Shown here: one piece after another, positions 17,735 through 64,000 of the stretch | Layout of the letters: every line of letters begins with the position of its first letter | How positions within the stretch are numbered: the first letter of the stretch is position 1 | DNA from: a virus | Lineage: Duplodnaviria > Heunggongvirae > Uroviricota > Caudoviricetes | Strand: one strand, 5' to 3' | IMG/VR virus record: IMGVR_UViG_3300022468_000772 | Coordinates: 86,224 to 150,223 of that record | DNA: 64,000 nucleotides | Notes under the pieces: model-generated | Database searches by the model: none | Told to the model about the DNA's origin: nothing | The model's input: only the letters and a program-made list of their open reading frames with translations | Program-made: the position numbers and the translations under genes

Positions 17735-19237
17735 ATGGCATTAGATTCTAATATTCGTGGTGTATCTTCCGGCGTTGGTGCTGAAGTTGATGCATCAAAT
17801 CAACTGAAAGTTGCTTTGGGTACAGACCCAACAAAAGCAGGTTTTATTCGTAACGCTTGGCTGCGCGATTCAACAACTGCACGTGAGATGCGTGTAACAG
17901 AAGAGGGAGAAAGTTTCTCTGCGTCTGGTCGTCTTTTGTTCTATTCGGATTTCAACGGTGCCACACTTTTGAATAACCAATGGAACACTCAAGCAACTAC
18001 TATGGCTGTTGCTTTGTCTGGTGGTTTTGTTCGATTAAATTCAGGTTCTATTGTAACTACCAACACTGGTGTGGCAATTAACTCTGCTCGGACATTTTCA
18101 TTGGAAGATGGTATTCAGCTACGAATAAAAGCAAAGATTCGACATAGTAATGGTGCGATTGCTAATAAGCAGTTTGAATTTGGTGTTGGAATGTATCAAG
18201 TTGCCGCTAACCAAGCCGGTGCATCTACTGAATTTATTGGATTCCGTTGGACACAGGCTGGTAACTTGATTGGTGTTATTGAGTATTCTACCGGTGGCGC
18301 ACCTACTGCTCTCACTACTGGAACAACTATCAACGGTGGTGTACCTTTGAGTGATAACGTGTCTCGTGAGTATGAGATTGTTATTTCTACATCAAGGGTT
18401 GAATTCTATATTGATGGAGTTTATCAATCCACTATTGAAGAACCTGCGGATGGGCCAGGTTTACTGAAGGGTGCATCTTATCCTATATTGAATCGCTTGT
18501 TTATCACAACTGCGACTGCTCTAGCACCAGTGTTTGATATTAGTGATGTGACTGTTTTGAAAATCGGTGCTGAAGCTGATATTCCAATCAGCTATCGCCA
18601 AGCACTGATGGGTCGTCACTCGGCATATCCACAAACTGGTCTTACTGGTACTAACGGCAACACTGCTGTCGCTGTTGCTAATGCCACTGCTCCTACTGCC
18701 ACTGCCGGTTCTAACACTGCTGCTGCATCTACTGGATTGGGTGGTTACTATGCGCTGACTGCTACTAACATTGGTACAGCAAATAATAACACAATAATCA
18801 ATGCATTTCAAAATCCTGCAATTCCAATCACTGCTGGTGCAGGTACTCATGGTCGTAATTTGATTATCACCGGCATTCGTATTAGCCCAATGGTGGTTAC
18901 TACTGCATTGACTGGTGGCGGTGCTGTTTTGAACTGGTTTGTGGCTGTTGGTAATACTGCCGTATCATACGCAACAACAGACGCTGCAGGTACTACTGCA
19001 CTCGGTTCTAAGTCACCACGTATTATTCCATTGTCTGTTGTCGATAGCATTGCTGCTGCTGCTGCTGTCGGTGTTGTTGCTACTCGTGTGGGTGATAGTT
19101 ACTATGCTCTGGAAACACCTCTGGTGGTGCATCCGGGCGAGTTTATTTCCGTTGGTGTTAGAACCATTCAAGCAACTGCTGCCGTGACTGCTGGTGTTAT
19201 TAGTGGCGGTATCGGTTTCGGCGGTTATTGGGATTAA
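17735..19237 (+). CDS. large fibre or receptor-binding-like protein (possible concanavalin/LamG-like domain)
   Basis: 500 aa; N-terminal LLFYSDFNGATLLNNQW...GGFVRLNSG; T/A/G-rich C-terminus. Confidence 0.35.
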   Translation: MALDSNIRGVSSGVGAEVDASNQLKVALGTDPTKAGFIRNAWLRDSTTAREMRVTEEGESFSASGRLLFYSDFNGATLLNNQWNTQATTMAVALSGGFVRLNSGSIVTTNTGVAINSARTFSLEDGIQLRIKAKIRHSNGAIANKQFEFGVGMYQVAANQAGASTEFIGFRWTQAGNLIGVIEYSTGGAPTALTTGTTINGGVPLSDNVSREYEIVISTSRVEFYIDGVYQSTIEEPADGPGLLKGASYPILNRLFITTATALAPVFDISDVTVLKIGAEADIPISYRQALMGRHSAYPQTGLTGTNGNTAVAVANATAPTATAGSNTAAASTGLGGYYALTATNIGTANNNTIINAFQNPAIPITAGAGTHGRNLIITGIRISPMVVTTALTGGGAVLNWFVAVGNTAVSYATTDAAGTTALGSKSPRIIPLSVVDSIAAAAAVGVVATRVGDSYYALETPLVVHPGEFISVGVRTIQATAAVTAGVISGGIGFGGYWD

Positions 19238-19242
19238 TATAA

Positions 19243-21183
19243 ATGTCCCTGTTACTTGCAGGGTCGCAAGGCGGATCAGGTTCTGCAGTTAACGGGAACC
19301 TATCTGGTTTTGAGAGTGGAATAGATGTTTCGGCAATTGCGGGTAATACTTCAATTGCCGGTTCTTTTTCTGCAACTGAATCTGGTGTCGATTCGTCATC
19401 AATATCTGCGACTCTTTTAATATCATCTACAAGTTTCTCTGCATCCGAAATTGGTTCGGATAGTTTAACTGCGTCTGTTGCATTGATAGTTGCTGGTAGC
19501 ACAGTATTGACGGAAACTGGCAACGACACTGCGGTAATTTCTGCTAATGCAACAGCAACTGCATCAATTGCTATAAATGAAACTGGTTTGGACACAACAT
19601 CCGGTTCTGGTGTTGCTAACATTACTGGATCATTGATTTCAACAGACACTAATGATACTGCGACAATTTCCGGTGTGGTTCCTATTGTAGCAAATTTGGC
19701 TTCAAATGAAGCAGGAAATGATACACTTGCAGCTACAGGTTCGGTATTGATTTCTGCGTCATTGGCTGTATCCGAAGTTGGTTCTGATTCAGTATTAATG
19801 AGTGGTTCTGTTCCTGTCTCGGCTACTTTGGTAGCAACTGAAACAGGTAACGACACAATTTTTATTTCTGCTTCTCAAGTAGCTGTAGGTGTATTTTCTT
19901 CAAGTGAAACTGGTACTGATACTGTTACATCATCTGGTAATGTCATCATTGTGGGAACAATTACATCTAATGAAACTGGTGTTGATATCAGCACAATTTC
20001 TGGTGGTGTTTTAGTTACAGGTTCCGAAATTGGTATTGAAATTGGTAATGACACTGCAGCTTCTGGCGGATATGTTACTGCTACAGCTAGTGGAAATTGG
20101 CTTGAAACTGGTTCTGATAGTGCTGCTTCAAGTGGTGTGGTATTAGCACTTGGTAATATACTGACTAATGAAATCGGAAGTGATGTTGCAGCATTTTCTG
20201 GCTCCACTTCACCGGTAGATCGATTCGGTACAATGATCAGTAATGAATCTGGTGTTGACACTGCAGTTTCTACTGGTCTGGTATTTGTTTCTGGTTCTGC
20301 GGCTGGTACTGAAACTGACAGTGATTTGTTTGGTGTGACTGGCTCGGTAACTCCTGTTGGTTCGATGATTGCTACTGAAACCGGTAGTGACACATCAACT
20401 TTAATTGGCGTGGTTCCTGTGTCAGGAAATATCAATCAACTTGAAAGTGCTATTGATACACTTATTATTTCTGGTTCAGCTTTAGTCTCTGTTTCTTTTG
20501 CAGGTATTGAGACTGGCAATGATGCTATATTTGGTAATGGTAATGCATTTGTATTAGCATCAGCTTTCTTAAATGAAACAGGTACTGATACAATTAGTTC
20601 TTTTGGTGGTGTTTCTATCACCAGTAGCGGTTCGATGACAGAGATTGGTTCTGATTCCATTGCGTCATCTGGTTATTCTGTTTCATCTGGTTCTGTTGGT
20701 GCCGTTGAATCTGGCTCTGATTCTTCTGGAATTATTGGTGTTGTTTATACTGTTGGCAATTTGAGTGCTACTGAAACTGGTAGCGACACATTTAGCTTGT
20801 CAGGCACATTTACACCAATCAATGGTACAATTGTTGCAGTTTCTAACGGTGTTGATGGTTTTGTTTCCGTTGGAAATTCCAGAGTCTCAATTACTGCACT
20901 TATTCAAGAGTCTGCAAATGACAGTTTTTACTGCGAAGGAACATCTGGTAACTCAGGCAGAATGGAAGTCATCGAAAGTTCTGATACAATATCACCTTTG
21001 GAGTTGGCGGATGCCTACTACAGGGATGGTAGATCGATGACGATCAATAAATACATAGCAGGCGCGGGTAAGGTTTCTGGTGTTACTGGAACTCCCCACA
21101 CACCACAGATACAGCAGATTTTGGATGATATTTTCGAAGACCCAAGATCGTTTACCCCGAAGAAATATATAGGATTGAAATGA
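19243..21183 (+). CDS. tandem-repeat fibrous protein (about 27 copies of a 22-23-aa unit E-T/S-G-x-D-T/S)
   Basis: Units such as ETGNDTAVISANATATASIAIN and ETGSDSAASSGVVLALGNILTN repeat from about aa 40 to 540, then a unique C-terminal domain. Confidence 0.5.
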   Translation: MSLLLAGSQGGSGSAVNGNLSGFESGIDVSAIAGNTSIAGSFSATESGVDSSSISATLLISSTSFSASEIGSDSLTASVALIVAGSTVLTETGNDTAVISANATATASIAINETGLDTTSGSGVANITGSLISTDTNDTATISGVVPIVANLASNEAGNDTLAATGSVLISASLAVSEVGSDSVLMSGSVPVSATLVATETGNDTIFISASQVAVGVFSSSETGTDTVTSSGNVIIVGTITSNETGVDISTISGGVLVTGSEIGIEIGNDTAASGGYVTATASGNWLETGSDSAASSGVVLALGNILTNEIGSDVAAFSGSTSPVDRFGTMISNESGVDTAVSTGLVFVSGSAAGTETDSDLFGVTGSVTPVGSMIATETGSDTSTLIGVVPVSGNINQLESAIDTLIISGSALVSVSFAGIETGNDAIFGNGNAFVLASAFLNETGTDTISSFGGVSITSSGSMTEIGSDSIASSGYSVSSGSVGAVESGSDSSGIIGVVYTVGNLSATETGSDTFSLSGTFTPINGTIVAVSNGVDGFVSVGNSRVSITALIQESANDSFYCEGTSGNSGRMEVIESSDTISPLELADAYYRDGRSMTINKYIAGAGKVSGVTGTPHTPQIQQILDDIFEDPRSFTPKKYIGLK

Positions 21184-28118: not shown

Positions 28119-30146
28119 TTAGACTTCCTTGTCAACCAATTCAGCAGTGGCCTTGATTTTCTTGGACAGACCGAAGTTCATTTCCAGAGTTGTATTTTCA
28201 TACGAACCCAAATCAGTGAACCACTTGCGACCCAAAATTACACCAAACTTGGCCTTGATGATCTTGTCACGCAGTGTAGCGATGTTACCCTTCAGGAGCT
28301 TTAGAGCAGTTTCGTTATCGGTCACAGGTGCCAAATCCTTCAGTACATTAGCAACCACTTCCTTAGAAGGGGTCAGGCTCTTGCCAGCAGCGATATCGGC
28401 TTCCACATCGGAGATTTTGGGGATGCTGTTCAGACCAGACAAACCAATCTCCAGTGCCTTAGCAACGTATGCATCGACACTTTCGCCTTTGACAGACTTG
28501 GGGGAAAACCCGCTTGGCGTCACACCATACTGTTTCAGGAACAAAGCACCTTCTGCACCGTACTTCTTAGCGAAGTCTTCGGAGAATTCAGGTTTCTCAA
28601 TTCGCGAATTCAGAATCTTCTGTGCAACACGCAATTTGTACAGGTCAAACTGCCATGTAAACATGTCTTTAGCGGTCACAGGAGCCGCCATGGAGCGATT
28701 GATGACAGGCATGTTGGATACATCGATCACATACGTTGCATTGATCTTGAAAGGCTCCAGAGGAATGCCATTTTGAACCAACAGATCGTATGTTGCTTTG
28801 GTCAACACCACAGGCAACTTCTTCACATTCACAATACCATCACGAATGATAGCATAGTTGCGCCAGATGAAACTTTCCACAGAGTTACCAAAGCCCAATT
28901 CATTGTCAGGCAGAGAAACAGTACCATCACGGCGAGTCAGGATCGACACGTTAGGCCGGTCTTCATCAAATTTCAATGTGCTGATAGCAGCCTTCACTTC
29001 ACCTTCTTTGGAAGAGAATTCTGGCTTGAAACCGCCTTCATCAGCCACCACTTCACGCTTGCCACCGATAGCATTGTAGCTGAATTCGGGGTGAGAAATG
29101 TGCAACAGGTTACCTTCGGTGTCTGCCAAATCCATCAACAAAGTCAGCACGTTGTATGCATTGGGGTCTTGCTTCAGCTTCAGATTGCGTGGCTTATCCT
29201 TGAACGGTTCGTAGTCACCAACAAAGGATACCACACGGTTGAAGTCTTGCTTTGAGAATGCATTCTGTACAACATTGAACAGAGATTCATCACCGATCAG
29301 ACCAGACAGTTCCAAAGCCTTGTCAGATTCACCACGTTGGATCAATGCACCCACCACTTGAACAGCAGCGAATTCATCTTCAACGGTTTCAATATCACCG
29401 GAACCTTGGAAGAAAGAGTAAGCAATGCAATTCGAGGGGAATGCTGCTTTACCGGATGCGTCAGGCTTGACAGTCACATAGCTTTGATCCATATGACCCA
29501 CAATCAGGGTGTCCAGAGGCAAACCTTCAACCACTTTGCGCTTACCAGAAGAACGAGTAGTCAAAGAACGTGTCAGAACGTCAGTATAGGATTGGAAGTC
29601 ACCAGCACCGATCATTTCACCACCCATTTCTTCAGCCATTTGGGTCAGGAAAGCATCATCGGCATAGTAGCCATAGGAAACCACCACAGAGCTTGCAACA
29701 TGGTCAGCGACCTTGGTACACACCTTGATGATTTCGGAGCGTGAGGATTGGTTTTCGCCACCGTCAGACATGAATGTCATGGATACTGGTCGGTCAGTGC
29801 TATCGATAGCCAACTGTACCACCTTTTCCAGAGGGTCTTTGAAACCGGTCAGGCCACGTGCAACCAAGAAACGGTCAATAGCGGTATTGACGCTTTGCAG
29901 GTCTTTGGCAGTCGAGATTTGCAGGTTTTCGAAGATGGTGCCGCAATCGCCACGTGAAGAGAACCAAATCAGTGTCAGCGTGTCTTCTGGTTCGACCAAT
30001 GTAGGCAGCTTGTTTTTCAGGTGATTGCGCAGCTTAGGTAGTTCGCCATACATGCTTCCAGAGCAGTCAACCACCACAATACGATGCATAGGAATGACAA
30101 CTGCTACTTCAGCCTTGTCTTCGAAATGTTTTGTCACAAGTTTCAT
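28119..30146 (-). CDS. large von Willebrand factor A (vWA) domain protein with long C-terminal extension
   Basis: VVVVDCSGSM (MIDAS DxSxS) at the N-terminus, then TLIWFSS...G and MSDGGEN; 675 aa from the M of MKLVTKH (RBS AAGGAAA). Confidence 0.6.
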   Translation of the reverse strand: MKLVTKHFEDKAEVAVVIPMHRIVVVDCSGSMYGELPKLRNHLKNKLPTLVEPEDTLTLIWFSSRGDCGTIFENLQISTAKDLQSVNTAIDRFLVARGLTGFKDPLEKVVQLAIDSTDRPVSMTFMSDGGENQSSRSEIIKVCTKVADHVASSVVVSYGYYADDAFLTQMAEEMGGEMIGAGDFQSYTDVLTRSLTTRSSGKRKVVEGLPLDTLIVGHMDQSYVTVKPDASGKAAFPSNCIAYSFFQGSGDIETVEDEFAAVQVVGALIQRGESDKALELSGLIGDESLFNVVQNAFSKQDFNRVVSFVGDYEPFKDKPRNLKLKQDPNAYNVLTLLMDLADTEGNLLHISHPEFSYNAIGGKREVVADEGGFKPEFSSKEGEVKAAISTLKFDEDRPNVSILTRRDGTVSLPDNELGFGNSVESFIWRNYAIIRDGIVNVKKLPVVLTKATYDLLVQNGIPLEPFKINATYVIDVSNMPVINRSMAAPVTAKDMFTWQFDLYKLRVAQKILNSRIEKPEFSEDFAKKYGAEGALFLKQYGVTPSGFSPKSVKGESVDAYVAKALEIGLSGLNSIPKISDVEADIAAGKSLTPSKEVVANVLKDLAPVTDNETALKLLKGNIATLRDKIIKAKFGVILGRKWFTDLGSYENTTLEMNFGLSKKIKATAELVDKEV

Positions 30147-30377
30147 AATTAAAGTTTCCTTTGTTGTTGAGTTTAATATTCTACCACGGTTTTTTGGTTT
30201 GTACAGTGCGTTCGTCAAACAGTTTTTAGGTCTATACCAAAATGCTTTTCTAGATCATTACTGATGATGTCAACTCCGTAATTATCAGCATGTACAAAAA
30301 CACATTCCTGAATAAGTAGTTTTGCAAACTCATTTTGTTCAGGTGTAAATTCGATATTCGCAATTAGAGCAATCTTC

Positions 30378-31594: not shown

Positions 31595-32392
31595 TTATTT
31601 GCCAATATTCATTACTGACATACCATGTGGAATCAGAATTGTCTGAACTTTTCCGTTTGAAACTGCTTCCGCTACCTTCAAATTGGCTTGAGCATTCATG
31701 TAAGCAATGCTTTGTCCAGAGTTCGATGCCAGTGCAGCCATACGCTCAGATTCCAGCTTTGCCAACTTGACTTCGTTTTCCTTGATCTTCAATTCGTTTT
31801 GGCTACGCACAAATTCAGTAGCAGAGGCCAAGATTTGATCATTAGGGACAACACTTCGAACTTGAACCACGGTCAGTGTCAATGACGAGTTCAATTTCTC
31901 ACGACTCAATTGATCATTAACTTCTGCCAAGATTTCTGCTTCCATCTTTTGGCGATTGTCTGCGACTTCAAGTGACTTGTAGTTACGAACCACTTTGTAT
32001 GCGGCATTTGTTACCAACACATTCATGTAGTCATACATCAGCAAGGTGTCACCATCATCACGTGCGTGGAACGACTTGCTCTTGGTCGAATACAACTCAG
32101 CAACAGAACTTGGATTGATACTGTAAACAACAGTCATGTCGAAGTCTTTCAGTGGAGAGTTATCCGCTGTCATGGGAGTTTTGTCATTGATCTTGATGGT
32201 CAAGTCTTTGACAGGGAAAGTCAAAACATGTCCAACCAAAGTTTGATTCCAAGAACCGGGAGGTAGTTCAGCACCTTGAATCTGTTTGGATGCATCTACC
32301 CGAACGCCAACCTCGCCTGTTTCGATACGGGTACAACCAGTCATCAAGACAGAAGCTGCCATCACCAAACCAATCAAAATTTTCTTCATCAT
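31595..32392 (-). CDS. SPFH (band-7 / HflK/C / prohibitin-like) domain lipoprotein
   Basis: Signal peptide plus lipobox LMTGC; SPFH core TADNSPLKDFDMTVVYSI ... LTLTVVQVRSVVP... then a coiled-coil tail. Confidence 0.65.
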   Translation of the reverse strand: MMKKILIGLVMAASVLMTGCTRIETGEVGVRVDASKQIQGAELPPGSWNQTLVGHVLTFPVKDLTIKINDKTPMTADNSPLKDFDMTVVYSINPSSVAELYSTKSKSFHARDDGDTLLMYDYMNVLVTNAAYKVVRNYKSLEVADNRQKMEAEILAEVNDQLSREKLNSSLTLTVVQVRSVVPNDQILASATEFVRSQNELKIKENEVKLAKLESERMAALASNSGQSIAYMNAQANLKVAEAVSNGKVQTILIPHGMSVMNIGK

Positions 32393-33498: not shown

Positions 33499-33609
33499 TT
33501 AAAAATATTTTAGAACACAGGCAACAATAATTGCGATTGCTGCTATATAAACAATACCCTTTACAAGGGCTTTTGTGGCACGTGCCTCTTCTTCATCATA
33601 CCAATCCAT
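33499..33609 (-). CDS. small single-TM protein (36 aa)
   Basis: MDWYDEEEARATKALVKGIVYIAAIAIIVACVLKYF. Confidence 0.25.
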   Translation of the reverse strand: MDWYDEEEARATKALVKGIVYIAAIAIIVACVLKYF

Positions 33610-34042
33610 TTTTATCCTCCCATGGTAATACAGGGTCAGCGATCCAGCGCCGACGCATACGATCCATTGCCTCTGCAGGCACATTGTGAATAGAACCGAA
33701 AGAGCCATGCACGGAAATCACTTGCGGGATAATTCCAAGTTGCAGTGCAATTTCAAAGTAAGGGTTCAGTTCACGCTGAGTAGTGAAAGTGTTGGATACA
33801 ACAACACTCCAACCTTCTTGCAGCTTTTGCGCCACATTAGACTCACACCAGTGATGTGCAGCACCGAGCTTATTCAGGTCGAAGTTGTAGTTACCTTGCT
33901 TGTCATAGAAGTACATGTCAGCTTCATAATGACGCCATCCACCATCCATAGCAATCTTTCGGGCAATGGTACTTTTACCCGAGCCCGGCAAACCCCTCAC
34001 AATCACAAAGTAGGGTTTGGTCTTACCATCCGATGCTTGCAT
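33596..34042 (-). CDS. P-loop kinase (candidate polynucleotide 5'-kinase)
   Basis: Walker A VRGLPGSGKST directly at the N-terminus, as in the T4 Pnk kinase domain; 148 aa. Confidence 0.5.
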   Translation of the reverse strand: MQASDGKTKPYFVIVRGLPGSGKSTIARKIAMDGGWRHYEADMYFYDKQGNYNFDLNKLGAAHHWCESNVAQKLQEGWSVVVSNTFTTQRELNPYFEIALQLGIIPQVISVHGSFGSIHNVPAEAMDRMRRRWIADPVLPWEDKNGLV

Positions 34043-34238
34043 AATAAATTTCCTTCTTGTAGTTGAAAGCAGCACGAACTGCTTCTGGATATACGACATA
34101 CCACAAATTGTCCAATGCAGACATTGTGGTTCCACGAACTGTGCAACGACCTTTACTGTCTGTCTCACGCATCAACTCTTTGTGCATTGCTTCAATGATT
34201 TGTTCGCCAATTTTGATTGCGTCAGACTTAGTGATCAT
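34023..34238 (-). CDS. hypothetical protein
   Basis: 71-aa ORF. Confidence 0.35.
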   Translation of the reverse strand: MITKSDAIKIGEQIIEAMHKELMRETDSKGRCTVRGTTMSALDNLWYVVYPEAVRAAFNYKKEIYYASIGW

Positions 34239-35714: not shown

Positions 35715-36284
35715 TCAGTCTCCGTGATGCGTTGACCTTGTTTCAAATTGGAGACACTTACGAATTTCTTCCAGAGAATATGGTTTCATATCCCCTGCAG
35801 CACGTGTATCAATACCAACATCCATACACTTTCCGGTGTTTGGCTGTTGATAGTTTGAATGCCGATGACCATGCAGATGTGTTGAACCGTATCTTGACGA
35901 ATCCCATGATTCAATCGGGAAATGACACAGGATGTAAGAAGTCTTCCCAATCTTCAATTTCTTGTAGTCTTGGATAGACGCAAACACGCCCATGAATCGC
36001 AATTCGCTTTCATCATCATGGTTACCGAGAATCAGATGATGGTTGCAATGATCAGAAATCCGGCGCAGCAGCTTTTTGGTTTCATCATATTTGCCAAAGG
36101 TAATGTCGCCCAGATTCCACAGGTCGCCACCCTCTGGAACGGTGTTAATCACATTATAAATGATCAGTTCATTCATTTCTTCGAGGGTCGAACCCTTACG
36201 CGAGAATGGGCAGAATTGCTGAATTCTTTTATGGAAAAGATGCCAATCCGAAGTGAAGTATGGTTGTTGTTCAATTTTATTCAT
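35715..36284 (-). CDS. calcineurin-like metallophosphoesterase
   Basis: TSDWHLFH (DxH), LGDITF (GDxx), LGNHDD (GNHD/E), HGHRH; start at the M of MNKIEQQ. Confidence 0.6.
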   Translation of the reverse strand: MNKIEQQPYFTSDWHLFHKRIQQFCPFSRKGSTLEEMNELIIYNVINTVPEGGDLWNLGDITFGKYDETKKLLRRISDHCNHHLILGNHDDESELRFMGVFASIQDYKKLKIGKTSYILCHFPIESWDSSRYGSTHLHGHRHSNYQQPNTGKCMDVGIDTRAAGDMKPYSLEEIRKCLQFETRSTHHGD

Positions 36285-36291
36285 ATGTTGA

Positions 36292-36597
36292 TTATACACC
36301 AAAAATCTTGTTGTATTCACTTTTTGAAATTTTTTTGTAGTAGCCATGTTCAGAAAGTGATACATATTCCCCATTTAAAATTTTCTCTCTTAGGGGTTTA
36401 AACAATTCCTCAACAGTGAATTCCTCATATGCGCGATATTGTACCATATCATGAGCATCCTGTAATGTTATCTCATTTTTTGCCATACATTCTCGCGTTA
36501 AAGCACCAATAAATGATTGAACAATTAGTAATGTAGTTTGATCTAAACGTGATCCAACAACCTTTTTGTCAAATTCTTCGCGGAGTCTTGACTCCAT
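36292..36597 (-). CDS. hypothetical protein
   Basis: 101-aa ORF. Confidence 0.4.
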   Translation of the reverse strand: MESRLREEFDKKVVGSRLDQTTLLIVQSFIGALTRECMAKNEITLQDAHDMVQYRAYEEFTVEELFKPLREKILNGEYVSLSEHGYYKKISKSEYNKIFGV

Positions 36598-40909: not shown

Positions 40910-41578
40910 TTAAAACATGTTGTAATATTCTCCAATATTTTTATTTGCCTTTTCTTCCCACATTTCGCGACCAGCCGATGTACGATAGATGTATTTGCGT
41001 TTGTGCCCCACAAACATCTGTAGAAAATTTGCCGACTTCTTATAGTTTTCTTTGGTCAACTCAGCGCCATTTTCCAAAATGATGTTTTCTTGATTGGTGA
41101 GAAAAACGCTCCACTCAGCAGCCAAAGAAGAAAGATCGGCATCGAGTAAAGCATTGAATTCATCAGGGACACTGATATCCATATCCCAATCACGTTGAAC
41201 ATGAACTTCGAGTGAAGTTTTTTCGATGTACTCTTGTGCGCAGTTTACCACATTCTTTTCGTATTCGGAAAAGGGTGATTGTTTGTTCAGGTCACGTGCA
41301 AAAATTCCAAGAAGAGTAGCAGAACACCGTTCATTAGCATCACTACCTGCCATTGGAAAGTAAACCAGATCATGATATGCAGCCGCCAGCAAAACGGTAG
41401 GTGATCTGTATCCGATAGACACGAGTGCATCAATCACATTTTGTGCATGTGTCGCGTTGTGGTATGGTGTTGCATGGCGCAGACGTTGCTCATGATATGC
41501 ATTGCCAAACGAATTGAACAATGTCAGGATGTTCGGTGCGTCTTTGAAAAATTGGTTTGTTTTTGTCATGATGGTCAT
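40910..41578 (-). CDS. HD-domain metal-dependent phosphohydrolase
   Basis: YHNATHAQNV ... LLAAAYHDLVY (H...HD signature). Confidence 0.5.
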   Translation of the reverse strand: MTIMTKTNQFFKDAPNILTLFNSFGNAYHEQRLRHATPYHNATHAQNVIDALVSIGYRSPTVLLAAAYHDLVYFPMAGSDANERCSATLLGIFARDLNKQSPFSEYEKNVVNCAQEYIEKTSLEVHVQRDWDMDISVPDEFNALLDADLSSLAAEWSVFLTNQENIILENGAELTKENYKKSANFLQMFVGHKRKYIYRTSAGREMWEEKANKNIGEYYNMF

Positions 41579-42225: not shown

Positions 42226-43275
42226 TTAGTACCCCCGCTTTAGCAAATAACTGTTGGAAACTGACTTAAAGGTAAAGCGATCACCCTTGTTTGACTTAAA
42301 TACAACACCTTCGCGCATCAGATTCTTCAGATCACCGATTCGGCTAGGCTCAGAAGCTGCATAGTTCAGGAAATCATCAGAAGTCATTCCACGGATATCA
42401 AAATCCGTTTCCAATACTGGCACGGTCTTGATTTGCAAAAAGTCAGCCAATGCCTGCATTTCTTTTGGTGTGTAGTATTTCTGTGCATCAATGTCATAAA
42501 CATCGAACAGACGGTATTCCCACGCACCTAGATTGTAGTAGTTGCCCTGGACAGCAGGCCCGATTGTTTCGAACTGCAGTGCAATATTAGGACAGAAACT
42601 AGCCAGCTTCTCTTTTAGATTATTAGCGAAAGCAGGCTGCGTGAAAGGTGAATTCATGATCACATCTTGATCTTCCAGCTTCAGGCGCAGGTTGCGAGAG
42701 CAGATACCAAAATCACCGTCACGTTGGAAAACAGTCACAGAGGAACCTTCAGCCTTTTCTTCGATAGTGAAAGTGGCATCGGGGTTCTTTTCCAGATAGT
42801 TTTCCACGGAACGCATGAAGTTCTGAATACGTTCTTGGTCGGTCTTTGGAATGAAGCTAGGGAATGAACCCATGGCATTCACAGGTACACGCTCTGGCTC
42901 TGGTTCCCACTTGATGATACCAAGCAGTTCCGTAACATCTAGACCTTCAACGAATTGTGTTGGATCATTGAATTCTGCAGGAATAGGTAGCAGCAAACCT
43001 TGACTCAGTGCGCCTTTCAGCTTGATGGTCTTCAGACGCTCACCGTCGATACCCTTGTAGTTCTTGGGGTATTTGTCGGCTTTGGTCAAGAATGGTGCAA
43101 TAGTGTTTGGCATCCATGAGTCACACTCACAGTAGACAACCAAGTCACCAACAGCGTACTTGTCCTTCTGGTCAATCACGCGCCACCCACCGATCCGATA
43201 CTGCACAATGCGGTCAGCACCTTCGATGGCAATTACTTCTTCAATTCGTGCAATATATGCAAGTTTACGTGTCAT
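42226..43275 (-). CDS. ATP-dependent RNA ligase, Rnl5-like (N-terminal OB-like domain plus adenylyltransferase)
   Basis: N-terminus MTRKLAYIARIEEVIAIEGADRIVQYRIGGWRVIDQKDKYAVGDLVVY parallels NgrRnl MGVRKLATIR...PIAGAEAIECCHVDGWTCVIKKGEFKQGD; motif I EEKAEGSS (KxxG). Confidence 0.5.
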   Translation of the reverse strand: MTRKLAYIARIEEVIAIEGADRIVQYRIGGWRVIDQKDKYAVGDLVVYCECDSWMPNTIAPFLTKADKYPKNYKGIDGERLKTIKLKGALSQGLLLPIPAEFNDPTQFVEGLDVTELLGIIKWEPEPERVPVNAMGSFPSFIPKTDQERIQNFMRSVENYLEKNPDATFTIEEKAEGSSVTVFQRDGDFGICSRNLRLKLEDQDVIMNSPFTQPAFANNLKEKLASFCPNIALQFETIGPAVQGNYYNLGAWEYRLFDVYDIDAQKYYTPKEMQALADFLQIKTVPVLETDFDIRGMTSDDFLNYAASEPSRIGDLKNLMREGVVFKSNKGDRFTFKSVSNSYLLKRGY

Positions 43276-45584: not shown

Positions 45585-46382
45585 TTAAACTTCTACAACT
45601 TCAATCGAGAAATATTTTGGTAGTGTCTCATAAATCACATATCCACGTGGGTTGCTAAGAATCCGAGTACCGTGAATGAAGTAATCAACCGGAAAGTGTG
45701 TATGACCATGAATCCAAACACTAGGCCATCCAGCACTGATTACATCTTCCATATCGGTACAGCAATAGAATGGTGTCAAACGTGTAATATTTGACTCCGA
45801 GCGATAATGTGGTGCATGATGTGTAAAAACAACACGATTCTTCATGCCAGTATTGTGATCAGTCAAACGCTCATATAAAAAGTTTTTATGCTCGTAATGC
45901 TTTTCAATACCTTTTACTGGTGTAAATGTACTTTCATCAATTTCCCTGTAATCATTCATTGCATTACCAGAGATAATAGCCATTGGATCAGATTTGTTCA
46001 AATCTGTCCAGAGAGTGGCACCAATTAGATGACAGTCACCTTCCATATGCTCAAGCATTTCTCCAAAGTCGATATTTGTAATACCAGCCTCTCGGAAATA
46101 ATCGTAAACAATATTTTTTGCTTCGAAGAATGAGGAACCGTAATACTCGTGATTCCCAGAAATCCAAAGGACACGTTTGTATTTGGTTGAAACACGATCT
46201 AAGAAATCTCGAATGCTGTGACTCATATATGTGTCGTACATACCGGGTCGAAGAAAACGTATTTCGCCCACATCACCAGCCAGAATCAAAACATCCGCCT
46301 CTGGAAATTCAAAGTCGGTTGGTATGCCTGCAGTTTTATCAATGTCCAAATGCAGGTCTGAACAATAAGCAATTTTAATCAT
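45585..46382 (-). CDS. calcineurin-like metallophosphoesterase (second copy)
   Basis: YCSDLHLD (DxH), LAGDVGE (GDxxE), ISGNHEYY (GNHE), GHTH. Confidence 0.6.
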   Translation of the reverse strand: MIKIAYCSDLHLDIDKTAGIPTDFEFPEADVLILAGDVGEIRFLRPGMYDTYMSHSIRDFLDRVSTKYKRVLWISGNHEYYGSSFFEAKNIVYDYFREAGITNIDFGEMLEHMEGDCHLIGATLWTDLNKSDPMAIISGNAMNDYREIDESTFTPVKGIEKHYEHKNFLYERLTDHNTGMKNRVVFTHHAPHYRSESNITRLTPFYCCTDMEDVISAGWPSVWIHGHTHFPVDYFIHGTRILSNPRGYVIYETLPKYFSIEVVEV

Positions 46383-51730: not shown

Positions 51731-52384
51731 TTATTGTGTTGCTTGCCAGCGACGGAAGTTTTCTTCGGCCTTCTTATTGTACTCGACAAAAGCGCCAGTG
51801 TATAGATTTTCCCATGTTTGGAAACTAACTTTGATACCCTCTTCTACACTCCAGATGTCGGCAAACATTGTTTCATCGACAGCAGGTGTGTACACAAATG
51901 TGGTGCAATAAAAATCTCGTCCATCACCACCAACCACAATCTCGCTGAAGATGGGTACGAACAATTCAGAACGCAGGTTCAGACCAGTTTCTTCAGCAGT
52001 CTCACGCACGATGGCTTGATGGATAGTCTCACCAGCGTCTTGTTTACCGCCCGGCAGCGCAAGAATATCCGTGTTTCGGCGTGTTGTTGTCAACACCTTA
52101 CCGGATGTGCTATGAATGATCACGGCTGCAGAGTTAGCGAGTGTACGCTTACTTGTATCTACATAAGTTTGTTGAGGGATAGCCGGTGTCTCAGATTTAG
52201 CCAAGACAAAGTAGACTTCAATATTGTCTTCGCGCTGAAAATCTGCGCATGCGATACCTTCACAAAAGTTTTTTCTTTCACCAGTAGTATCAAAATGACA
52301 GATACTACATGGATTTGGTGTGCTTCCAACGACAATTGGGATTACTTTAACTCCACCCCAAGTTTCAACAGCTAAATTTTTCAT
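51731..52384 (-). CDS. Nudix hydrolase with N-terminal Cys cluster
   Basis: Nudix box GGKQDAGETIHQAIVRETAEETGL (Gx5Ex7REUxEExGU); N-terminal CSICH...CEGIAC. Confidence 0.75.
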   Translation of the reverse strand: MKNLAVETWGGVKVIPIVVGSTPNPCSICHFDTTGERKNFCEGIACADFQREDNIEVYFVLAKSETPAIPQQTYVDTSKRTLANSAAVIIHSTSGKVLTTTRRNTDILALPGGKQDAGETIHQAIVRETAEETGLNLRSELFVPIFSEIVVGGDGRDFYCTTFVYTPAVDETMFADIWSVEEGIKVSFQTWENLYTGAFVEYNKKAEENFRRWQATQ

Positions 52385-52398
52385 ATTTCTCTCCAAAA

Positions 52399-52424
52399 GA
52401 AAAGGCACCGGTTAGGATGCCTTT
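52399..52424 (-). promoter_or_regulatory. hairpin plus U-tract in the Nudix 5' leader, after the TAXI gene stop
   Basis: Minus strand: -10-like TGTGATATAAT, then AAAGGCATCCTAACCGGTGCCTTT + TCTTTT, then RBS GGAGAG and the ATG. Confidence 0.3.
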
Positions 52425-52442: not shown

Positions 52443-53357
52443 TTACTTCTTAGCTGCTACTGTAGGCAACTGGTACATGGGCCACTTGGCTTCTGCACCC
52501 ACAACCACTTTTGTCCATGCAGCATGAGTACCAGTGGTTTCTGCCAATTCAGGAGCCTTCGCATTGAAACATGCACGGAACTTGGACAGAGCTTCAACCA
52601 TCTTGGGTGTCTTGTACTCTCGTACCACCAGAATGGCATCTGTAGACACAGTGGTGATGCCGGTAGAACCCATGTTGGTGTAGTTCAGAGTCGAAGGCTT
52701 GTATACATTCTTCAACTTAGCAATCATTGGTTCAGGAATACTCAACAGCTTATGTGCCTTGTTCAGGGTCTTCAAGTTATCCATGGGTTGACCACCAACA
52801 AACAAGGCAGCGGCAGCAGTTCCAGCATTCACAGCTTCAATTGCAGCTTTGGCATCAGCAACTTCCACCACGTTGAAATTGATTTCTGTCTGAAGACGAA
52901 TTACTTGGGCAGTGATATAAGAACCACCAGACGCCACGACAGTTCGCCCTGCAAGGTCATTGATGGTATTAAAGACCACTTGTTTACCGCCAAACCCCAT
53001 AACACCGCCTTCTTTTCCTGCACCTGCTGCAAGTGCAACTAGATGCACCTGTTCAGGATGCAGGGTCACCAAGGTCTTGATGTTGCTCAAGTCTTCAGTG
53101 TTTCCACGGAACTTGATCACATCGGTTTGCACGAATGCGCCTTGAACTTCATTTCCAGTCAGACGATCCATATTCTGCATAGAACCGGAAGAGTTCAATT
53201 CCTGCAGTTGAATGTCGTTGGCACATACATTGCCGATTTCCTTAGCCATGCGGGAGTATGTCGCACCGGCACCACCAGTGGATACCTTGAAGGTATTTTG
53301 AGCCAGCACCGAGAATGCAGCAGCACCGAGAATGATAGCGAGAATGAATTTTTTCAT
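52443..53357 (-). CDS. secreted periplasmic solute-binding protein, TAXI (TRAP-associated) family-like
   Basis: Signal peptide MKKFILAIILGAAAFSVLAQ; FKVSTGGAGATYSRMAKEIGNV resembles the TAXI N-terminal TGGTGGxYY motif; 304 aa, typical SBP size. Confidence 0.45.
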   Translation of the reverse strand: MKKFILAIILGAAAFSVLAQNTFKVSTGGAGATYSRMAKEIGNVCANDIQLQELNSSGSMQNMDRLTGNEVQGAFVQTDVIKFRGNTEDLSNIKTLVTLHPEQVHLVALAAGAGKEGGVMGFGGKQVVFNTINDLAGRTVVASGGSYITAQVIRLQTEINFNVVEVADAKAAIEAVNAGTAAAALFVGGQPMDNLKTLNKAHKLLSIPEPMIAKLKNVYKPSTLNYTNMGSTGITTVSTDAILVVREYKTPKMVEALSKFRACFNAKAPELAETTGTHAAWTKVVVGAEAKWPMYQLPTVAAKK

Positions 53358-59302: not shown

Positions 59303-59642
59303 ATTTTTCTTGATTTATCTTATCTGAGATAAATTTTAAAAAATCGTTGTCATTCAGTTTGTCATTTTTCCTTTGAATTTCGTACAACTCAGTGCCTGTA
59401 AAACCATATTTTATCAATTTCATAAGGATACGCTGGATCGTGCCATTTGAAGATTGAATGTTTAACGTCATGCTTCCAGTGCGATCTAGATAATCCAATT
59501 CATTTTCATCCAACAAGCAACCTAGTGCGCAGTAGCATAATTGATCTTTTTCATAGTTGAACCGGCGATAAAAATATGATACTCTGTTCCCACTCAGGGT
59601 AAGTTCCAAAATTTTCTTGAGTGCTTCGATTTTAGTTGACAT
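59292..59642 (-). CDS. hypothetical protein
   Basis: 116-aa ORF. Confidence 0.4.
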   Translation of the reverse strand: MSTKIEALKKILELTLSGNRVSYFYRRFNYEKDQLCYCALGCLLDENELDYLDRTGSMTLNIQSSNGTIQRILMKLIKYGFTGTELYEIQRKNDKLNDNDFLKFISDKINQEKSML

Positions 59643-60684
59643 TGTTAATTACCTCTTTCATTTGCTTCAAACGTTCTTCGATGGTTCCGGTAAGAATTGT
59701 GTATTCTAACCCAAAATCCTGCAAAACATCACAGTAATAATTATGAACACTCTGACGGAAGTTTTCATCACGGCGTGTTCCATCCTGATCAAATGGGATA
59801 TCTGGAACACAGATAAAGATATGCGCGTAACGATGCATGTCTTGAAAGTTGTATGACCTTAGAAAACGGTCTACACGACCAAATATAACCTCAGAATAAA
59901 CGGAAGTAGTAACCGAACATGTGTCACAGATCACAAAGTCTTTACTCGTGTCATAGGCTCGTTGAGCAGCAATGTATTCCTGTTGGCGTTGAACCTCTGC
60001 AATTTGGCGCATATTTTTGAACACGAGTTTACCATCGGTTTGTTCCCACAATTCGCGACCATATTCAAAGACAGGCACAATATCAAATTTCTTAGAAGCA
60101 CGTTGCACGATGGTTGTCTTTCCAGAAGATTCGCCACCGAGGATCAGAATGCGCGGAATAAAGGTAGCAAACACTTCTGGATGCACCCAATCTTCGATAT
60201 CACGGTAGTTCTTTTCAATCATTTCACGCAGCATTGTACCGGATACTTTGTTCACTTCGCGGTCTTCATCAACCATAGAGAACTGGCATTCTGGAGAAAT
60301 TGTTCCAGCCAACATATAACCATATGACTCAGAAGCAAAAACAACATCAACACCATCACCATCAGGGAAATATTCTCTGATCTTGTCACGGCAGAATTCA
60401 CGATGGATGAATGCCGGTTCGTCATCAAGTGGAATTGAATCAATTTCTGGATTCAATACAACTGCTTCCAGACGCCCAGAATCAATTTCATTCTTGTAAA
60501 TTGTGTCGAGCCAGTATTGGCGTGTCGTGCTGTCACAGCCGAAGAATTCTTCAGATGTGTAGCTCAAAACAAACACTTGTTCGCAGCGTTCCAGTGCAGT
60601 TTCGATCACATATTGATGCCCTTTGTGCAGTGGTGCAAATTTACCAACCACAAAGCCACGTTTGAATTCTTTATTTGTTGTCAT
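59632..60684 (-). CDS. nadR: NadR-like bifunctional NMN adenylyltransferase / ribosylnicotinamide kinase
   Basis: N-terminal (H/T)xGH nucleotidyltransferase motif VGKFAPLHKGHQ; C-terminal Walker A GGESSGKTT as in NadR RNK domains; 350 aa, no HTH. Confidence 0.65.
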   Translation of the reverse strand: MTTNKEFKRGFVVGKFAPLHKGHQYVIETALERCEQVFVLSYTSEEFFGCDSTTRQYWLDTIYKNEIDSGRLEAVVLNPEIDSIPLDDEPAFIHREFCRDKIREYFPDGDGVDVVFASESYGYMLAGTISPECQFSMVDEDREVNKVSGTMLREMIEKNYRDIEDWVHPEVFATFIPRILILGGESSGKTTIVQRASKKFDIVPVFEYGRELWEQTDGKLVFKNMRQIAEVQRQQEYIAAQRAYDTSKDFVICDTCSVTTSVYSEVIFGRVDRFLRSYNFQDMHRYAHIFICVPDIPFDQDGTRRDENFRQSVHNYYCDVLQDFGLEYTILTGTIEERLKQMKEVINNVN

Positions 60685-60876: not shown

Positions 60877-60904
60877 CCTTTACTTCAACTAGATTATACC
60901 ACAG
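60877..60904 (-). promoter_or_regulatory. early promoter -10 (copy)
   Basis: rc: CTGTGGTATAATCTAGTTGAAGTAAAGG. Confidence 0.4.
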
Positions 60905-61475
60905 ATTCCAGTCGTTGAATCTTCCGCCACTGGAAATAAGAGACAATTGCGTTGATCCAGAAGAAACCATACAGGATCGAAGTCAGATACAACTCACGTG
61001 ACCAGAACAAAGGTACGCTGATAGTGTTCACAATCAACCAAATACCCCAAGATTCAATACGCTTGCGCATCAGCATAAATTGACCAACAACACTCATTGT
61101 CAGTACAACAGAGTCTACAAAGGGTGCATAGGCGTCTGTAAACTTGTGCAGGAGCATTCCATAAGCGACAGCAACCAAAATTGCCGATACCAGATACGTC
61201 ACAAGTTGGTCAGATGGTGTATTGGTGATCTTGAGTACACCATTGTCGTTCTTTGCATTCCAGCCGATCCAGCCAATCACGCCTGTGATCAGGAAGAATA
61301 CCTGCAGAGTCGCATCCGCATATAGCTGGTTGTTGAAAAACAACACACCGAACAAAGCAGACGAAACAATACCTGTCCACCAAGTGTGGATGTTATTGCG
61401 ACCAGCCAAAAAGATACACAATGCAGTCATGATGTTGGCTGCAAGTTCGAGGGGTGTCCAAGTAAAAATGTTCAT
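60894..61475 (-). CDS. pnuC: PnuC-like nicotinamide riboside transporter
   Basis: Polytopic membrane protein; LYADATLQVFFLITGVIGWIGW matches the PnuC signature LYA...LQ.FF...YGWY.W; adjacent to nadR as in bacteria. Confidence 0.6.
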   Translation of the reverse strand: MNIFTWTPLELAANIMTALCIFLAGRNNIHTWWTGIVSSALFGVLFFNNQLYADATLQVFFLITGVIGWIGWNAKNDNGVLKITNTPSDQLVTYLVSAILVAVAYGMLLHKFTDAYAPFVDSVVLTMSVVGQFMLMRKRIESWGIWLIVNTISVPLFWSRELYLTSILYGFFWINAIVSYFQWRKIQRLESVV

Positions 61476-61494
61476 GATAAATTTCCTTTTGATT

Positions 61495-61872
61495 TCAGTT
61501 AGTTTCAAATTTAGATTTCAATCGCAGGTATTCTGCATACTCAGGGTCATTATCTCGCTTGATAGTTGCAATAGTTTTTTCAACAACACTATCGGTGATA
61601 AAAGAACTATTATAGCTCATGACAGTGGTAACAAACGCTTTGAGAATCACTTCAACAATTTCTTTGGTGATTTCTGGCTTTACAGCGTGTTCCAGAATAG
61701 ATGCGGATTCATCATCCACTTCAAACCATGTCTCTTCGCCATAATTTATACTTGTCTTTGTATCCCATAACGCCCAAATTTTATGCCTATCGATACGAGT
61801 GACTGTACCTGTATCTATATTGGTAGGCATCTTGTAAGCTACTTTGTCACCTACACTATATTCTGTTGTCAT
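61495..61872 (-). CDS. hypothetical protein (paralogue of 58316..58702)
   Basis: See paralogue entry at 58316..58702. Confidence 0.45.
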   Translation of the reverse strand: MTTEYSVGDKVAYKMPTNIDTGTVTRIDRHKIWALWDTKTSINYGEETWFEVDDESASILEHAVKPEITKEIVEVILKAFVTTVMSYNSSFITDSVVEKTIATIKRDNDPEYAEYLRLKSKFETN

Positions 61873-62355: not shown

Positions 62356-62389
62356 CCTTTTGAATTTCGATAATTGAATTATACCACGG
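62356..62389 (-). promoter_or_regulatory. early promoter plus leader motif (copy)
   Basis: rc: CCGTGGTATAATTCAATTATCGAAATTCAAAAGG. Confidence 0.5.
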
Positions 62390-62390
62390 T

Positions 62391-62903
62391 TTATTCGTCG
62401 CGGTTAATAATTTCAAACATTTTCCAAAACAAAGGAAAATCAGAAGCACGTTTCAATGTTGGCATCATCAGACGCTTCTCTGGAAAGTACGTGCCATAGG
62501 CAAACTTCGGATCGTAGCGTTCAATCGACTTGGTGTTGTCGAAAATATCGCAAATACGAATCTCTAGAACATCGCGAAATTGATCAGAAAGCCACTGTCG
62601 GTCAATAGCTTGACGAGTAGCGCGATTGCCATCTTCTGGCTTTGATGGATTTGTCATGCCTTTGACCATGCGCAACACATCATTACCAAAGGCAGCAATA
62701 TCTTTTTCTGGGCAATTAGTATCTTCCAATACGTCATGCATCCATGCTGCGCAGATTTGATCTTCGGTGCCGCCATTGTCTCGAATCAGTTTTGCAACTG
62801 CAGCGGGATGAACGATGTAAGGTTCACCTGTGTACTTACGTACTTGATGTTGGTGCCAAAATGTGGCGAGTTCACGTGCCCGTTTTATTTTTAGAGTTTT
62901 CAT
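62391..62903 (-). CDS. small alarmone hydrolase (SpoT/Mesh1-like HD-domain (p)ppGpp hydrolase)
   Basis: YIVHPAAVAKLI ... ICAAWMHDVLEDT matches the RelA/SpoT HD motif Y..HP..VA..L...AALLHDVVEDT; 170 aa. Confidence 0.6.
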   Translation of the reverse strand: MKTLKIKRARELATFWHQHQVRKYTGEPYIVHPAAVAKLIRDNGGTEDQICAAWMHDVLEDTNCPEKDIAAFGNDVLRMVKGMTNPSKPEDGNRATRQAIDRQWLSDQFRDVLEIRICDIFDNTKSIERYDPKFAYGTYFPEKRLMMPTLKRASDFPLFWKMFEIINRDE

Positions 62904-62905: not shown

Positions 62906-63148
62906 TTAAAGAATTGCGAGAATGTCAGATGGAAGCATATGTGGGTGTGGATTACTATCACACCGGAGAATCCAATTATCAGGTTTGTCCAACGCTACGA
63001 CGATGCGACCTCTCCCAGAAAAAGTTGACACCAACCAATTTTGCTTATACCAATAGAAATGATCCTCAAAACAAACAATTGTGCCATCGCCCAATTTGGT
63101 TTTGACACGTTCACCGAGGCGTAGTGTTTTGATGATGTTTTTGTTCAT
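62906..63148 (-). CDS. hypothetical protein
   Basis: 80-aa ORF downstream of a promoter copy. Confidence 0.4.
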   Translation of the reverse strand: MNKNIIKTLRLGERVKTKLGDGTIVCFEDHFYWYKQNWLVSTFSGRGRIVVALDKPDNWILRCDSNPHPHMLPSDILAIL

Positions 63149-63194: not shown

Positions 63195-63926
63195 TTACAA
63201 ATCTTCTTCATGAACGTTTGTCGGATAGTGACCAGTAATATGAGCGTCCCATACGTTGATCATATCACCATTATGATCTTGATATCGCTGCGGTTTGTGA
63301 TGAATTCGCAACTCATGACCACGGTGAAGAAGAATTTCTTTTTCACCTGGATTGAAACTGTGTTTCATCATAGAAATCGCATGTGTCCCCTTTGGTACAT
63401 GAATGCGTAACATATGTCTAGCAGTGTCTTCATCACCAATCTTTATAGCTCCATGTTTTTCATCATCTGGATGTGGATACTGTAAAGACGCAAATCCTGC
63501 AGCCTGCTTAATACTCGTTGATGTGGATGTGTATGCTGGCATATGAACATCCACATGTGATTCACCTTCAGCCTTGTTTTTCATGTGCTGACTAGGCGAC
63601 CAGTTAATACCCGAGTACACATGAAAATCTTTTTTGGTCTTATGTTTTTCCAAAACTTTATCCAAATGCTCTACACTCTTGGAAGCAGATTCTTTCCAAG
63701 AGTGTCCATTGTGGTAATTAATAAGTGGTAAATTTGTTGGCTTACTATCATCAGCATAATCACTCAAAACTACCTTTTCTGGTTCGGAAATTTTTTTCTG
63801 ATCTACTTTATTTTCTGAATGAATTTCAGTGTGTTCAGCTTGACTACGCTCAACATCATCCGCCATACGACCTTCTGACAAAGACTTTTTCTTGTCGTCT
63901 TTTAACTTAGAAGCCTTCTCAGTCAT
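63195..63926 (-). CDS. putative ADP-ribosyltransferase-like protein (Alt/Mod-like); frame stays open to the window end, so the gene may start beyond 64000
   Basis: K/E/D-rich N-terminus; FHVYSG ... AYTSTSTS ... PGEKEILLHRG resembles the (R/H)-STS-ExE order of R-S-E class ARTs. Confidence 0.3.
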   Translation of the reverse strand: MTEKASKLKDDKKKSLSEGRMADDVERSQAEHTEIHSENKVDQKKISEPEKVVLSDYADDSKPTNLPLINYHNGHSWKESASKSVEHLDKVLEKHKTKKDFHVYSGINWSPSQHMKNKAEGESHVDVHMPAYTSTSTSIKQAAGFASLQYPHPDDEKHGAIKIGDEDTARHMLRIHVPKGTHAISMMKHSFNPGEKEILLHRGHELRIHHKPQRYQDHNGDMINVWDAHITGHYPTNVHEEDL

Positions 63927-64000
63927 TGTCAGGCTATGTTTACCGTGACCAACAAATACCGATGGTAATTTAAGGCTACGCGCTTTTTTCTTCTCGTATT

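Follow-up and report, generated by a model that had tools for sequence, protein, structure and literature searches.

Phage infection is known to be hindered by toxic alarmone synthetases (toxSASs) of the CapRel and PhRel type and by the stringent response, and small alarmone hydrolases (SAHs) are an obvious enzymatic countermeasure. Many SAHs are found in phages and prophages, and two of them, PaSpo from SSU5 and PbcSpo from PVP-SE1, neutralise CapRel, PhRel, PhRel2, FaRel2 and FaRel on co-expression; the same authors suggested that SAHs allow incoming phages to get round alarmone-mediated defence (Jimmy et al. 2020, PMC7229694). The published evidence on phage SAHs that we found consists of such co-expression assays, with these two Salmonella-phage enzymes. 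PaSpo of SSU5 has been reported to strip the tRNA modification installed by FaRel2 (bioRxiv 10.1101/2024.07.05.602228) and is routinely employed to detoxify CapRel during expression, and the SAHs ATfaRel and MESH1 take off the 3'-CCA pyrophosphate added by toxSASs, restoring tRNA aminoacylation in vitro. ATD1, which is also cited as a phage alarmone-degrading enzyme, originates from the anti-TIR/STING study of Ho et al. Here, we analysed a 64,000-nucleotide stretch of DNA from an uncultivated tailed phage (IMG/VR record IMGVR_UViG_3300022468_000772, positions 86,224 to 150,223; hereafter the window), in which an earlier reading of the sequence alone (the original prediction) had placed a SpoT-like SAH gene:

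62391..62903, minus strand: coding sequence of a predicted stand-alone SAH of 170 aa, PaSpo-like, with a single RSH-type HD domain (open reading frame, Pfam, TIGR00691, structural model and dN/dS)

Among characterised proteins the best match of the window SAH is SSU5_099 of SSU5, to which it is 41% identical over 153 aa (100 bits, E=1e-31). SSU5_099 is presumably the published PaSpo, because it is the sole RSH-HD match in the 100 kb searched of SSU5's 103 kb. The two proteins are both phage-encoded and stand-alone, and share a single HD domain, PEDGNR...R and DPxF blocks and all catalytic residues; they differ, however, at 59% of aligned residues and in length (213 aa for SSU5_099 versus 170 aa), the window SAH being without the C-terminal tail of its SSU5 counterpart. 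The phages themselves are also of different types, a T4-like lytic myovirus of ~198 kb in the case of the window and a 103 kb phage with ParA/ParB-like partition genes in the case of SSU5, and the gene neighbourhoods differ. From its annotation and match, gp220 of PVP-SE1 is probably the tested PbcSpo protein. Like the window SAH it is a stand-alone phage SAH, of 169 aa, with an HP...HD..ED core, and PVP-SE1 also has PnuC and NadR-like genes, but the alignment is confined to 67 N-terminal residues (39% identity, 38.5 bits, E=7e-9), the C-terminal half being not detectably similar, and gp220 belongs to a different SAH subfamily. Because the window SAH scores 100 bits to SSU5_099, as against 38.5 bits to gp220 and E values of 1e-13 or higher to RelH, Mesh1, PaSAH and Aph1, we class it by sequence as PaSpo-like, although at 41% identity it could instead form a sister group of PaSpo.

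The window gene is a well-preserved addition to a type of phage gene that has already been published and tested, and the idea behind it is not new. Indeed, both suggestions in the original prediction, that phage SAHs can reverse toxSAS toxicity and that they can damp the stringent response, had been made before and in part demonstrated, the toxSAS effect by co-expression of SSU5 PaSpo and PVP-SE1 PbcSpo (PMC7229694). What the window adds is an intact, well-conserved, apparently PaSpo-like SAH from an uncultivated T4-like lineage of ~198 kb, in a family that is very common in viral contigs; the finding leaves current understanding unchanged.

Family assignment

The minus-strand frame at 62391..62903 is complete from ATG to stop, and its coordinates had been given exactly; the strand had been left unstated. 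The 170-aa translation contains YIVHPAAVAKLIRDNGGTEDQICAAWMHDVLEDT. The motif written as HP..VA......AAWMHDVLEDT in the original prediction is present, although the spacing of its dots is schematic, 14 residues rather than six separating 'VA' from 'AAWMHD'. The single Pfam domain is HD_4 (PF13328; 51.8 bits against a gathering score of 27.2 bits, E=1e-13), and the HD fold spans the whole 170 aa. As the entire polypeptide is one HD domain, it is therefore by definition a small alarmone hydrolase. NCBIfam TIGR00691 (spoT_relA) aligns via the N-terminal hydrolase positions 3–124 (E=4e-22), and PHROG 990, 'metal-dependent phosphohydrolase', is matched at E=1e-25. Sequence matches in the PDB are all RSH hydrolases, with E values down to 1.5e-13, and include Listeria Lmo0812, RelSeq, Rel from M. 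tuberculosis, T. thermophilus and B. subtilis, SpoT, Mesh1 and RelH, with Aph1 matched weakly. The generic HD family PF01966 was not reported by the Pfam search, and TIGR03276 (Phn-HD) reaches an E value of 0.007 only. It is highly probable that the product of 62391..62903 has the enzymatic identity of an SAH of the RSH superfamily.

Conservation of the hydrolase motifs

Residues of the window SAH were mapped onto RelSeq (1vj7) through a HMMER alignment, and conservation was assessed in an alignment of 33 homologues at 40–94% identity. The metal-ligand and catalytic-dyad roles of the RelSeq residues are well established. The relevant codons and residues are as follows:

62808..62840, minus strand: codons R22 through H32 (RKYTGEPYIVH), with the HD1 arginine, K23, the T25 loop insertion and the first metal-ligand His (RelSeq alignment)
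62721..62738, minus strand: codons H56-D57-V-L-E60-D61, HD metal-binding dyad and ED catalytic dyad (RelSeq alignment, invariant among the 33 homologues)
62526..62549, minus strand: codons D119-I-F-D-N123-T-K-S126, with the HD5 Asp, the HD6 Asn and a Ser replacing RelSeq T151 (RelSeq alignment)
R22: RelSeq R44, HD1, stacks on the base
K23: RelSeq K45, contacts substrate
H32: RelSeq H53, metal ligand
H56-D57: RelSeq H77-D78, metal ligands
E60-D61: RelSeq E81-D82, catalytic dyad
D119: RelSeq D144, HD5 metal ligand
N123: RelSeq N148, HD6
S126: RelSeq T151, keeps the HD1 Arg in position

The roles of RelSeq R44, K45, N148 and T151 and the definitions of the HD motifs are those of PMC9293644. All six RSH hydrolase motifs (HD1–HD6) are intact: R22, K23, H32, H56, D57, E60, D61, D119 and N123 are invariant in 33/33 homologues, and at least 90% of the sequences share S126. 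None of the His and Asp metal ligands, to whose possible loss the original prediction had drawn attention, is missing, H32, H56, D57 and D119 being unchanged throughout the alignment. After HD1 the window SAH has a one-residue insertion relative to RelSeq (R22-K-Y-T-G-E-P-Y29 versus R44-K-S-G-E-P-Y50); an insertion in this loop is typical of monofunctional SAHs, as is a Ser in place of RelSeq T151 of the bacterial RelH SAHs (PMC9293644). Two blocks specific to the family are also conserved among the homologues, SKPxDGNRAxRxAIDR (residues 87–102) and DPxF (131–134).

Predicted structure and structural relatives

An AlphaFold2 model built from the 33-homologue alignment is all-helical, with eleven helices, a mean predicted local distance difference test score (pLDDT) of 96.8 and a predicted template-modelling score (pTM) of 0.91. 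In a Foldseek search of the PDB the top 50 matches are all RSH-family chains, nearly all of them hydrolase domains, and Mesh1, RelH, PaSAH and the Rel N-terminal domain are matched at a probability of 1.00. Drosophila and human Mesh1 give template-modelling (TM) scores of 0.81–0.84, Corynebacterium RelH 0.80–0.84, Leptospira RelH 0.79 and the P. aeruginosa SAH ~0.75, with the hydrolase domains of Rel and SpoT ranking after these; the best fold matches include the MESH1-NADPH complex. The window SAH is accordingly modelled with the HD fold of RSH hydrolases.

The bacterial RelH SAHs (Listeria Lmo0812, 4YF1; Corynebacterium, 7QOC and 7QOD; Leptospira, 7QOE) and Pseudomonas PaSAH (6YVC) have the same fold (TM 0.75–0.84) and the HD1–HD6 motifs. 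Like the window SAH, they also carry one extra residue behind HD1 (RK-x-T-GEPY, as in Lmo0812) and a Ser where RelSeq has T151. They differ from it, however, in sequence (20–26% identity in structural alignments) and in being chromosomal housekeeping or self-protection enzymes rather than phage genes, and the HD1 residue of PaSAH is Leu where the window SAH keeps Arg. Mesh1/MESH1 (3NQW, 3NR1, 5VXA), the best structural match, is also a single-domain SAH; it hydrolyses (p)ppGpp and can clear toxSAS-modified tRNA, but is only ~21% identical and has a different loop geometry after HD1. The hydrolase domains of long RSHs (RelSeq 1VJ7, T. thermophilus Rel 6S2T, SpoT 7QPR) are homologous and have identical catalytic residues, whereas the window SAH has D-I rather than D-R at HD5 and is without synthetase, TGS and ACT domains, so the allosteric switch between hydrolase and synthetase is absent. 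More distant still is the Aph1-type (p)ppApp hydrolase (7SMG), a member of another family that is weakly matched (E=0.0038, TM 0.55–0.57). The Atd1 alarmone-degrading enzyme, also phage-encoded, we take to be a MazG-like pyrophosphatase of unrelated fold, and it falls in a different family from the window SAH.

Selection, relatives and distribution

Comparison of the window SAH with relatives at 72–77% amino acid identity gives ratios of nonsynonymous to synonymous substitution (dN/dS) of 0.10–0.24, with dS near saturation, and the protein is therefore under purifying selection. An identical protein (P0123) is recorded on contigs of up to ~198 kb, and relatives at 71–94% identity are present in metagenomes. 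More widely, relatives occur on at least 588 IMG/VR viral contigs and in 208 GenBank phage records, the latter including jumbo Erwinia and Pseudomonas phages and usually carrying the label 'metal-dependent phosphohydrolase'.

The SAH gene is kept in all close relatives while the adjoining genes vary. Among relatives at 77% SAH identity (L004 compared with L003, L006 and L007), the same SAH protein has different genes upstream, an ADP-ribosylglycohydrolase (ARH) and an ADP-ribosyltransferase (ART) gene in some contigs and unrelated open reading frames (ORFs) of 220 and 141 aa in others. These exchanges beside an identical SAH point to rapid gene turnover in an accessory region in which the SAH itself is retained.

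Stand-alone architecture

No RelA_SpoT synthetase domain was found among the ~50 window ORFs scanned against Pfam, and the gene tables of SAH relatives contain no RSH synthetase. The ORFs that flank the SAH, of 80 aa and 83 aa, have no RSH synthetase match in Pfam or PHROG, and both are too short for such a domain. With no synthetase domain in the SAH, its neighbours or the scanned ORFs, the window SAH is therefore a stand-alone protein rather than a toxSAS-operon antitoxin. A toxSAS partner, and with it membership of the ATfaRel-type antitoxins, was rejected because no synthetase gene is adjacent and co-oriented and none appeared among the ~50 ORFs scanned.

Proposed role in infection

Domain profiles, catalytic residues, fold, purifying selection, stand-alone architecture without a synthetase and a T4-like phage context are all observed for the window SAH and agree with the SpoT-like identity that had been proposed for it. 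For the metal, the substrates and the benefit to the phage, we infer the following from characterised members. A divalent metal, Mn2+ in those enzymes, would be held by H32, H56, D57 and D119, with R22 stacking on the purine base and the E60-D61 dyad and N123 catalysing removal of the 3'-pyrophosphate from (p)ppGpp to leave GDP or GTP and PPi. By analogy with the closest tested relative, (p)ppApp and tRNA pyrophosphorylated at the 3' CCA end would probably be substrates too. Made in the infected cell by a lytic T4-like phage, such an enzyme could keep alarmones low and undo the products of CapRel, PhRel and FaRel-type toxSASs, and low alarmone levels would let translation and nucleotide synthesis continue for phage production. 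It is therefore, on analogy with its tested relatives, likely that the window SAH is active and has a protective role in infection, whether as counter-defence or against the stringent response.

Several points weigh against this proposal. The window SAH is no more than 41% identical to any characterised SAH, and its HD5 motif is a hydrophobic D-I where long RSHs have a D-R/K pair. Substrate ranges vary among SAHs, some preferring (p)ppApp and some also dephosphorylating NADPH (PMC9765508). We found no published case of a phage-encoded SAH overcoming toxSAS defence in a real infection, the evidence being from co-expression, and protection from toxSASs would matter only if the host carries such defences. 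The window SAH would be a reasonable candidate for toxSAS-immunity tests in real infection and for mapping of substrate range across (p)ppGpp, (p)ppApp, pyrophosphorylated tRNA and NADPH.

A possible, if somewhat doubtful, alternative is that the enzyme acts solely on the host stringent response, hydrolysing (p)ppGpp made by RelA and SpoT so that synthesis of rRNA, tRNA and nucleotides stays on. This overlaps with the protective role proposed above, the selective benefit being the sole difference. It is in keeping with the conservation of R22 and K23, whose counterparts contact the guanine nucleotide in RelSeq, and with the heavy biosynthetic demands of a large lytic T4-like virus; moreover, the stringent response can restrict phages, which counter it in other ways too, for example through a portal protein that inhibits RelA/SpoT. 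The closest tested relative, however, neutralises toxSASs that produce ppApp and that modify tRNA, so the substrates of the family extend beyond (p)ppGpp, and the sequence holds nothing that separates a stringent-response role from one against toxSASs.

The NAD-gene neighbourhood

A second alternative arises from the surroundings of the gene. The window SAH sits within a long series of small minus-strand genes, in which the order of transcription is ART, the 80-aa ORF, SAH, ORFs of 83, ~72–100 and 125 aa, PnuC, a 60-aa ORF and a NadR-like gene. The features concerned are:

63195..64000, minus strand: ART, cut at the window end with its frame open to the edge (Pfam ADPrib_exo_Tox, E=2.9e-16)
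62906..63148, minus strand: 80-aa ORF upstream of SAH, unmatched in Pfam and PHROG and tightly packed against the SAH, with 2 nt between its stop and the SAH start codon
62100..62351, minus strand: 83-aa ORF downstream of SAH (PHROG 5289), conserved downstream in close relatives
60894..61508, minus strand: PnuC-type transporter of nicotinamide riboside or nicotinamide mononucleotide (NMN) (Pfam NMN_transporter, E=1.4e-49; PHROG 1880)
59632..60684, minus strand: NadR-like NMN adenylyltransferase/ribosylnicotinamide kinase (PHROG 3462, E=2e-41; Pfam AAA_28 and a weak cytidylyltransferase match)

The start codon of PnuC is uncertain, the protein measuring 204 aa in the window ORF and 196 aa in a relative. 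The 80-aa ORF adjoins the SAH in 5/9 close-relative loci and also in L097 and L098. At L097, a near-identical locus, the ART is complete at 278 aa and follows directly on an ARH (PF03747); writer and eraser lie side by side there (3128–4838), in a T4-like phage.

Mesh1, which has a motif for recognising nicotinamide riboside, dephosphorylates NADPH efficiently, and the window SAH might by extension be mainly a Mesh1-like NADP(H) 2'-phosphatase within a phage module for nicotinamide adenine dinucleotide (NAD) comprising ARH, ART, PnuC and NadR. It would convert NADPH and NADP+ to NADH and NAD+, feeding the phage ART or refilling NAD+ drained by host defences. It is true that, here and in the nearest relatives, the SAH is placed between ART (with ARH too in L097 and L003) and PnuC/NadR on one strand, and its top fold matches are Mesh1 structures, the MESH1-NADPH complex among them (TM 0.81–0.84). 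A Xanthomonas SAH, moreover, has measurable if weak NADPH phosphatase activity (PMC9765508). We nevertheless regard this function as improbable. In that bacterial SAH the NADPH activity was ~1000-fold less efficient than alarmone hydrolysis (PMC9765508), and the window SAH has only ~21% sequence identity to Mesh1, bacterial RelH and long RSH hydrolases being more similar to it in sequence.

Nor is the linkage to NAD genes conserved. By tblastn, the window ART, PnuC, NadR, Nudix, RNA ligase and other proteins were compared with 80 IMG/VR viral SAH loci, each taken with as much as 10 kb of flanking sequence (~1 Mb in all). Homologues of ART, PnuC and NadR were present in 0/80 of these loci, and Nudix gave one match. 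The nearest clade (22 contigs at 77% identity) keeps the ART-SAH-PnuC-NadR order, except in one contig type where ART does not lie beside the SAH, but relatives at 72–73% identity are without PnuC and NadR, one of them having an RNA ligase upstream of the SAH and ART 2 kb downstream. In the annotated genomes of phages PJ16 and Viktualia, SAH and NAD genes are not linked, and in PVP-SE1 PnuC (gp031) and the NadR-like gene (gp025) lie ~115 kb from its SAH. Coupling of SAH to NAD genes as a family-wide association was therefore rejected on its absence from all 80 loci and at 72–73% identity. Because it is missing from these loci, from the 72–73% relatives and from PVP-SE1, PJ16 and Viktualia, the adjacency of ART, PnuC and NadR is a lineage-specific trait of a mosaic accessory region and not a conserved functional module.

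What is left is recruitment at the level of this lineage, in which the SAH would have joined ARH, ART, PnuC and NadR in a host-takeover block centred on NAD, serving there as NADP(H) 2'-phosphatase. This too seems to us a long shot; if true, it would give phages a third enzymatic means, in addition to their known NAD+ reconstitution pathways, of feeding ADP-ribosylation or resisting defences that deplete NAD+. Less exotically, the SAH may be a dedicated repair enzyme for pyrophosphate at the tRNA 3'-CCA end, alongside the RNA ligase, kinase and phosphoesterases of the phage.

That the window SAH is a catalytically dead or repurposed HD protein, such as a nucleotide-binding regulator or a dNTPase-like phosphohydrolase, is very improbable: the HD superfamily is functionally diverse, but the six RSH hydrolase motifs are both intact and invariant, the profile matches are RSH-specific (PF01966 being unreported and TIGR03276 marginal) and the fold matches are all of the RSH family. 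Least credible of all is an antitoxin of a phage-borne toxSAS module, countering the phage's own synthetase as ATfaRel does in Cellulomonas marina, for although SAHs act as type IV antitoxins in the FaRel operon and some phages and prophages carry toxSASs (PMC7229694), the lack of a synthetase in the flanking ORFs, the ~50 scanned ORFs and the gene tables of relatives comes near to refuting it for the 64-kb window.

Phage genome and other genes of the window

The window, of 41% GC content, contains a T4-type replication and packaging core made up of a gp44-like clamp loader, a gp43-like DNA polymerase, UvsX, a gp41-like helicase, gp32 and the large terminase, and also codes for an RNA ligase and an ATP-dependent DNA ligase. 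A close known phage was ruled out, megablast of the 60–64 kb region against 50,697 GenBank phage records giving 0 matches, and the window DNA polymerase shares no more than 41% identity with those of cyanomyoviruses. By these comparisons the source phage is an undescribed and distant T4-like lineage.

The original prediction also mentioned an unrelated HD protein at 40910..41578. This minus-strand frame encodes 222 aa with an H...HD pattern (H43, H69-D70; HNATHAQ...AAAYHDLVY) and matches PHROG 19425, 'phosphohydrolase' (E=2.5e-11), but has no Pfam match at E<=1e-3, so that the remark is only partly confirmed. None of the SAH-bearing loci gave a tblastn match to it (E<=1e-5), as would be expected if it is not homologous to the SAH, and it looks like a separate member of the HD superfamily.

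Four minus-strand genes, at 33596..34168, 35715..36374, 42226..43275 and 45585..46382, form a possible RNA/tRNA repair set comprising an RNA ligase (PHROG 968), an AAA_33-type kinase and two calcineurin-like metallophosphoesterases. In one SAH relative (L008) a T4 Rnl1-type RNA ligase lies immediately upstream of the SAH. A Nudix hydrolase (51731..52408, minus strand; PF00293, E=1.7e-11), whose substrates could also include nucleotide signals or NAD derivatives, adjoins an NMT1-like protein of the substrate-binding type (52443..53357, minus strand; PF16868, E=2e-9).

A scan of 59–64 kb for promoters and terminators gave fewer promoter-like sites than shuffled controls (4 versus 12.4). One such site, at 62378..62407 on the minus strand (TTAACC, an 18-nt spacer and TATAAT preceded by a TG), overlaps the final SAH codons and points toward the downstream 83-aa ORF, although given the regional shortage it is weak evidence for a promoter.

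Elsewhere in the window, a 314-aa ORF with a NUMOD3 motif of the homing-endonuclease type (5892..6836, minus strand) lies just upstream of the DNA polymerase gene and opposes the otherwise plus-strand replication module, suggesting a likely insertion of a mobile endonuclease. Two large ORFs of 500 and 646 aa (17735..21183, plus strand) have no Pfam or PHROG match. A 699-aa von Willebrand A protein (PHROG 2426) is encoded at 28119..30218 and an SPFH/Band-7 protein at 31595..32392, both on the minus strand. Finally, a single tRNA-Met with a CAT anticodon (225..300, plus strand) is located near a gene for a YqeY-like protein (1573..2061).

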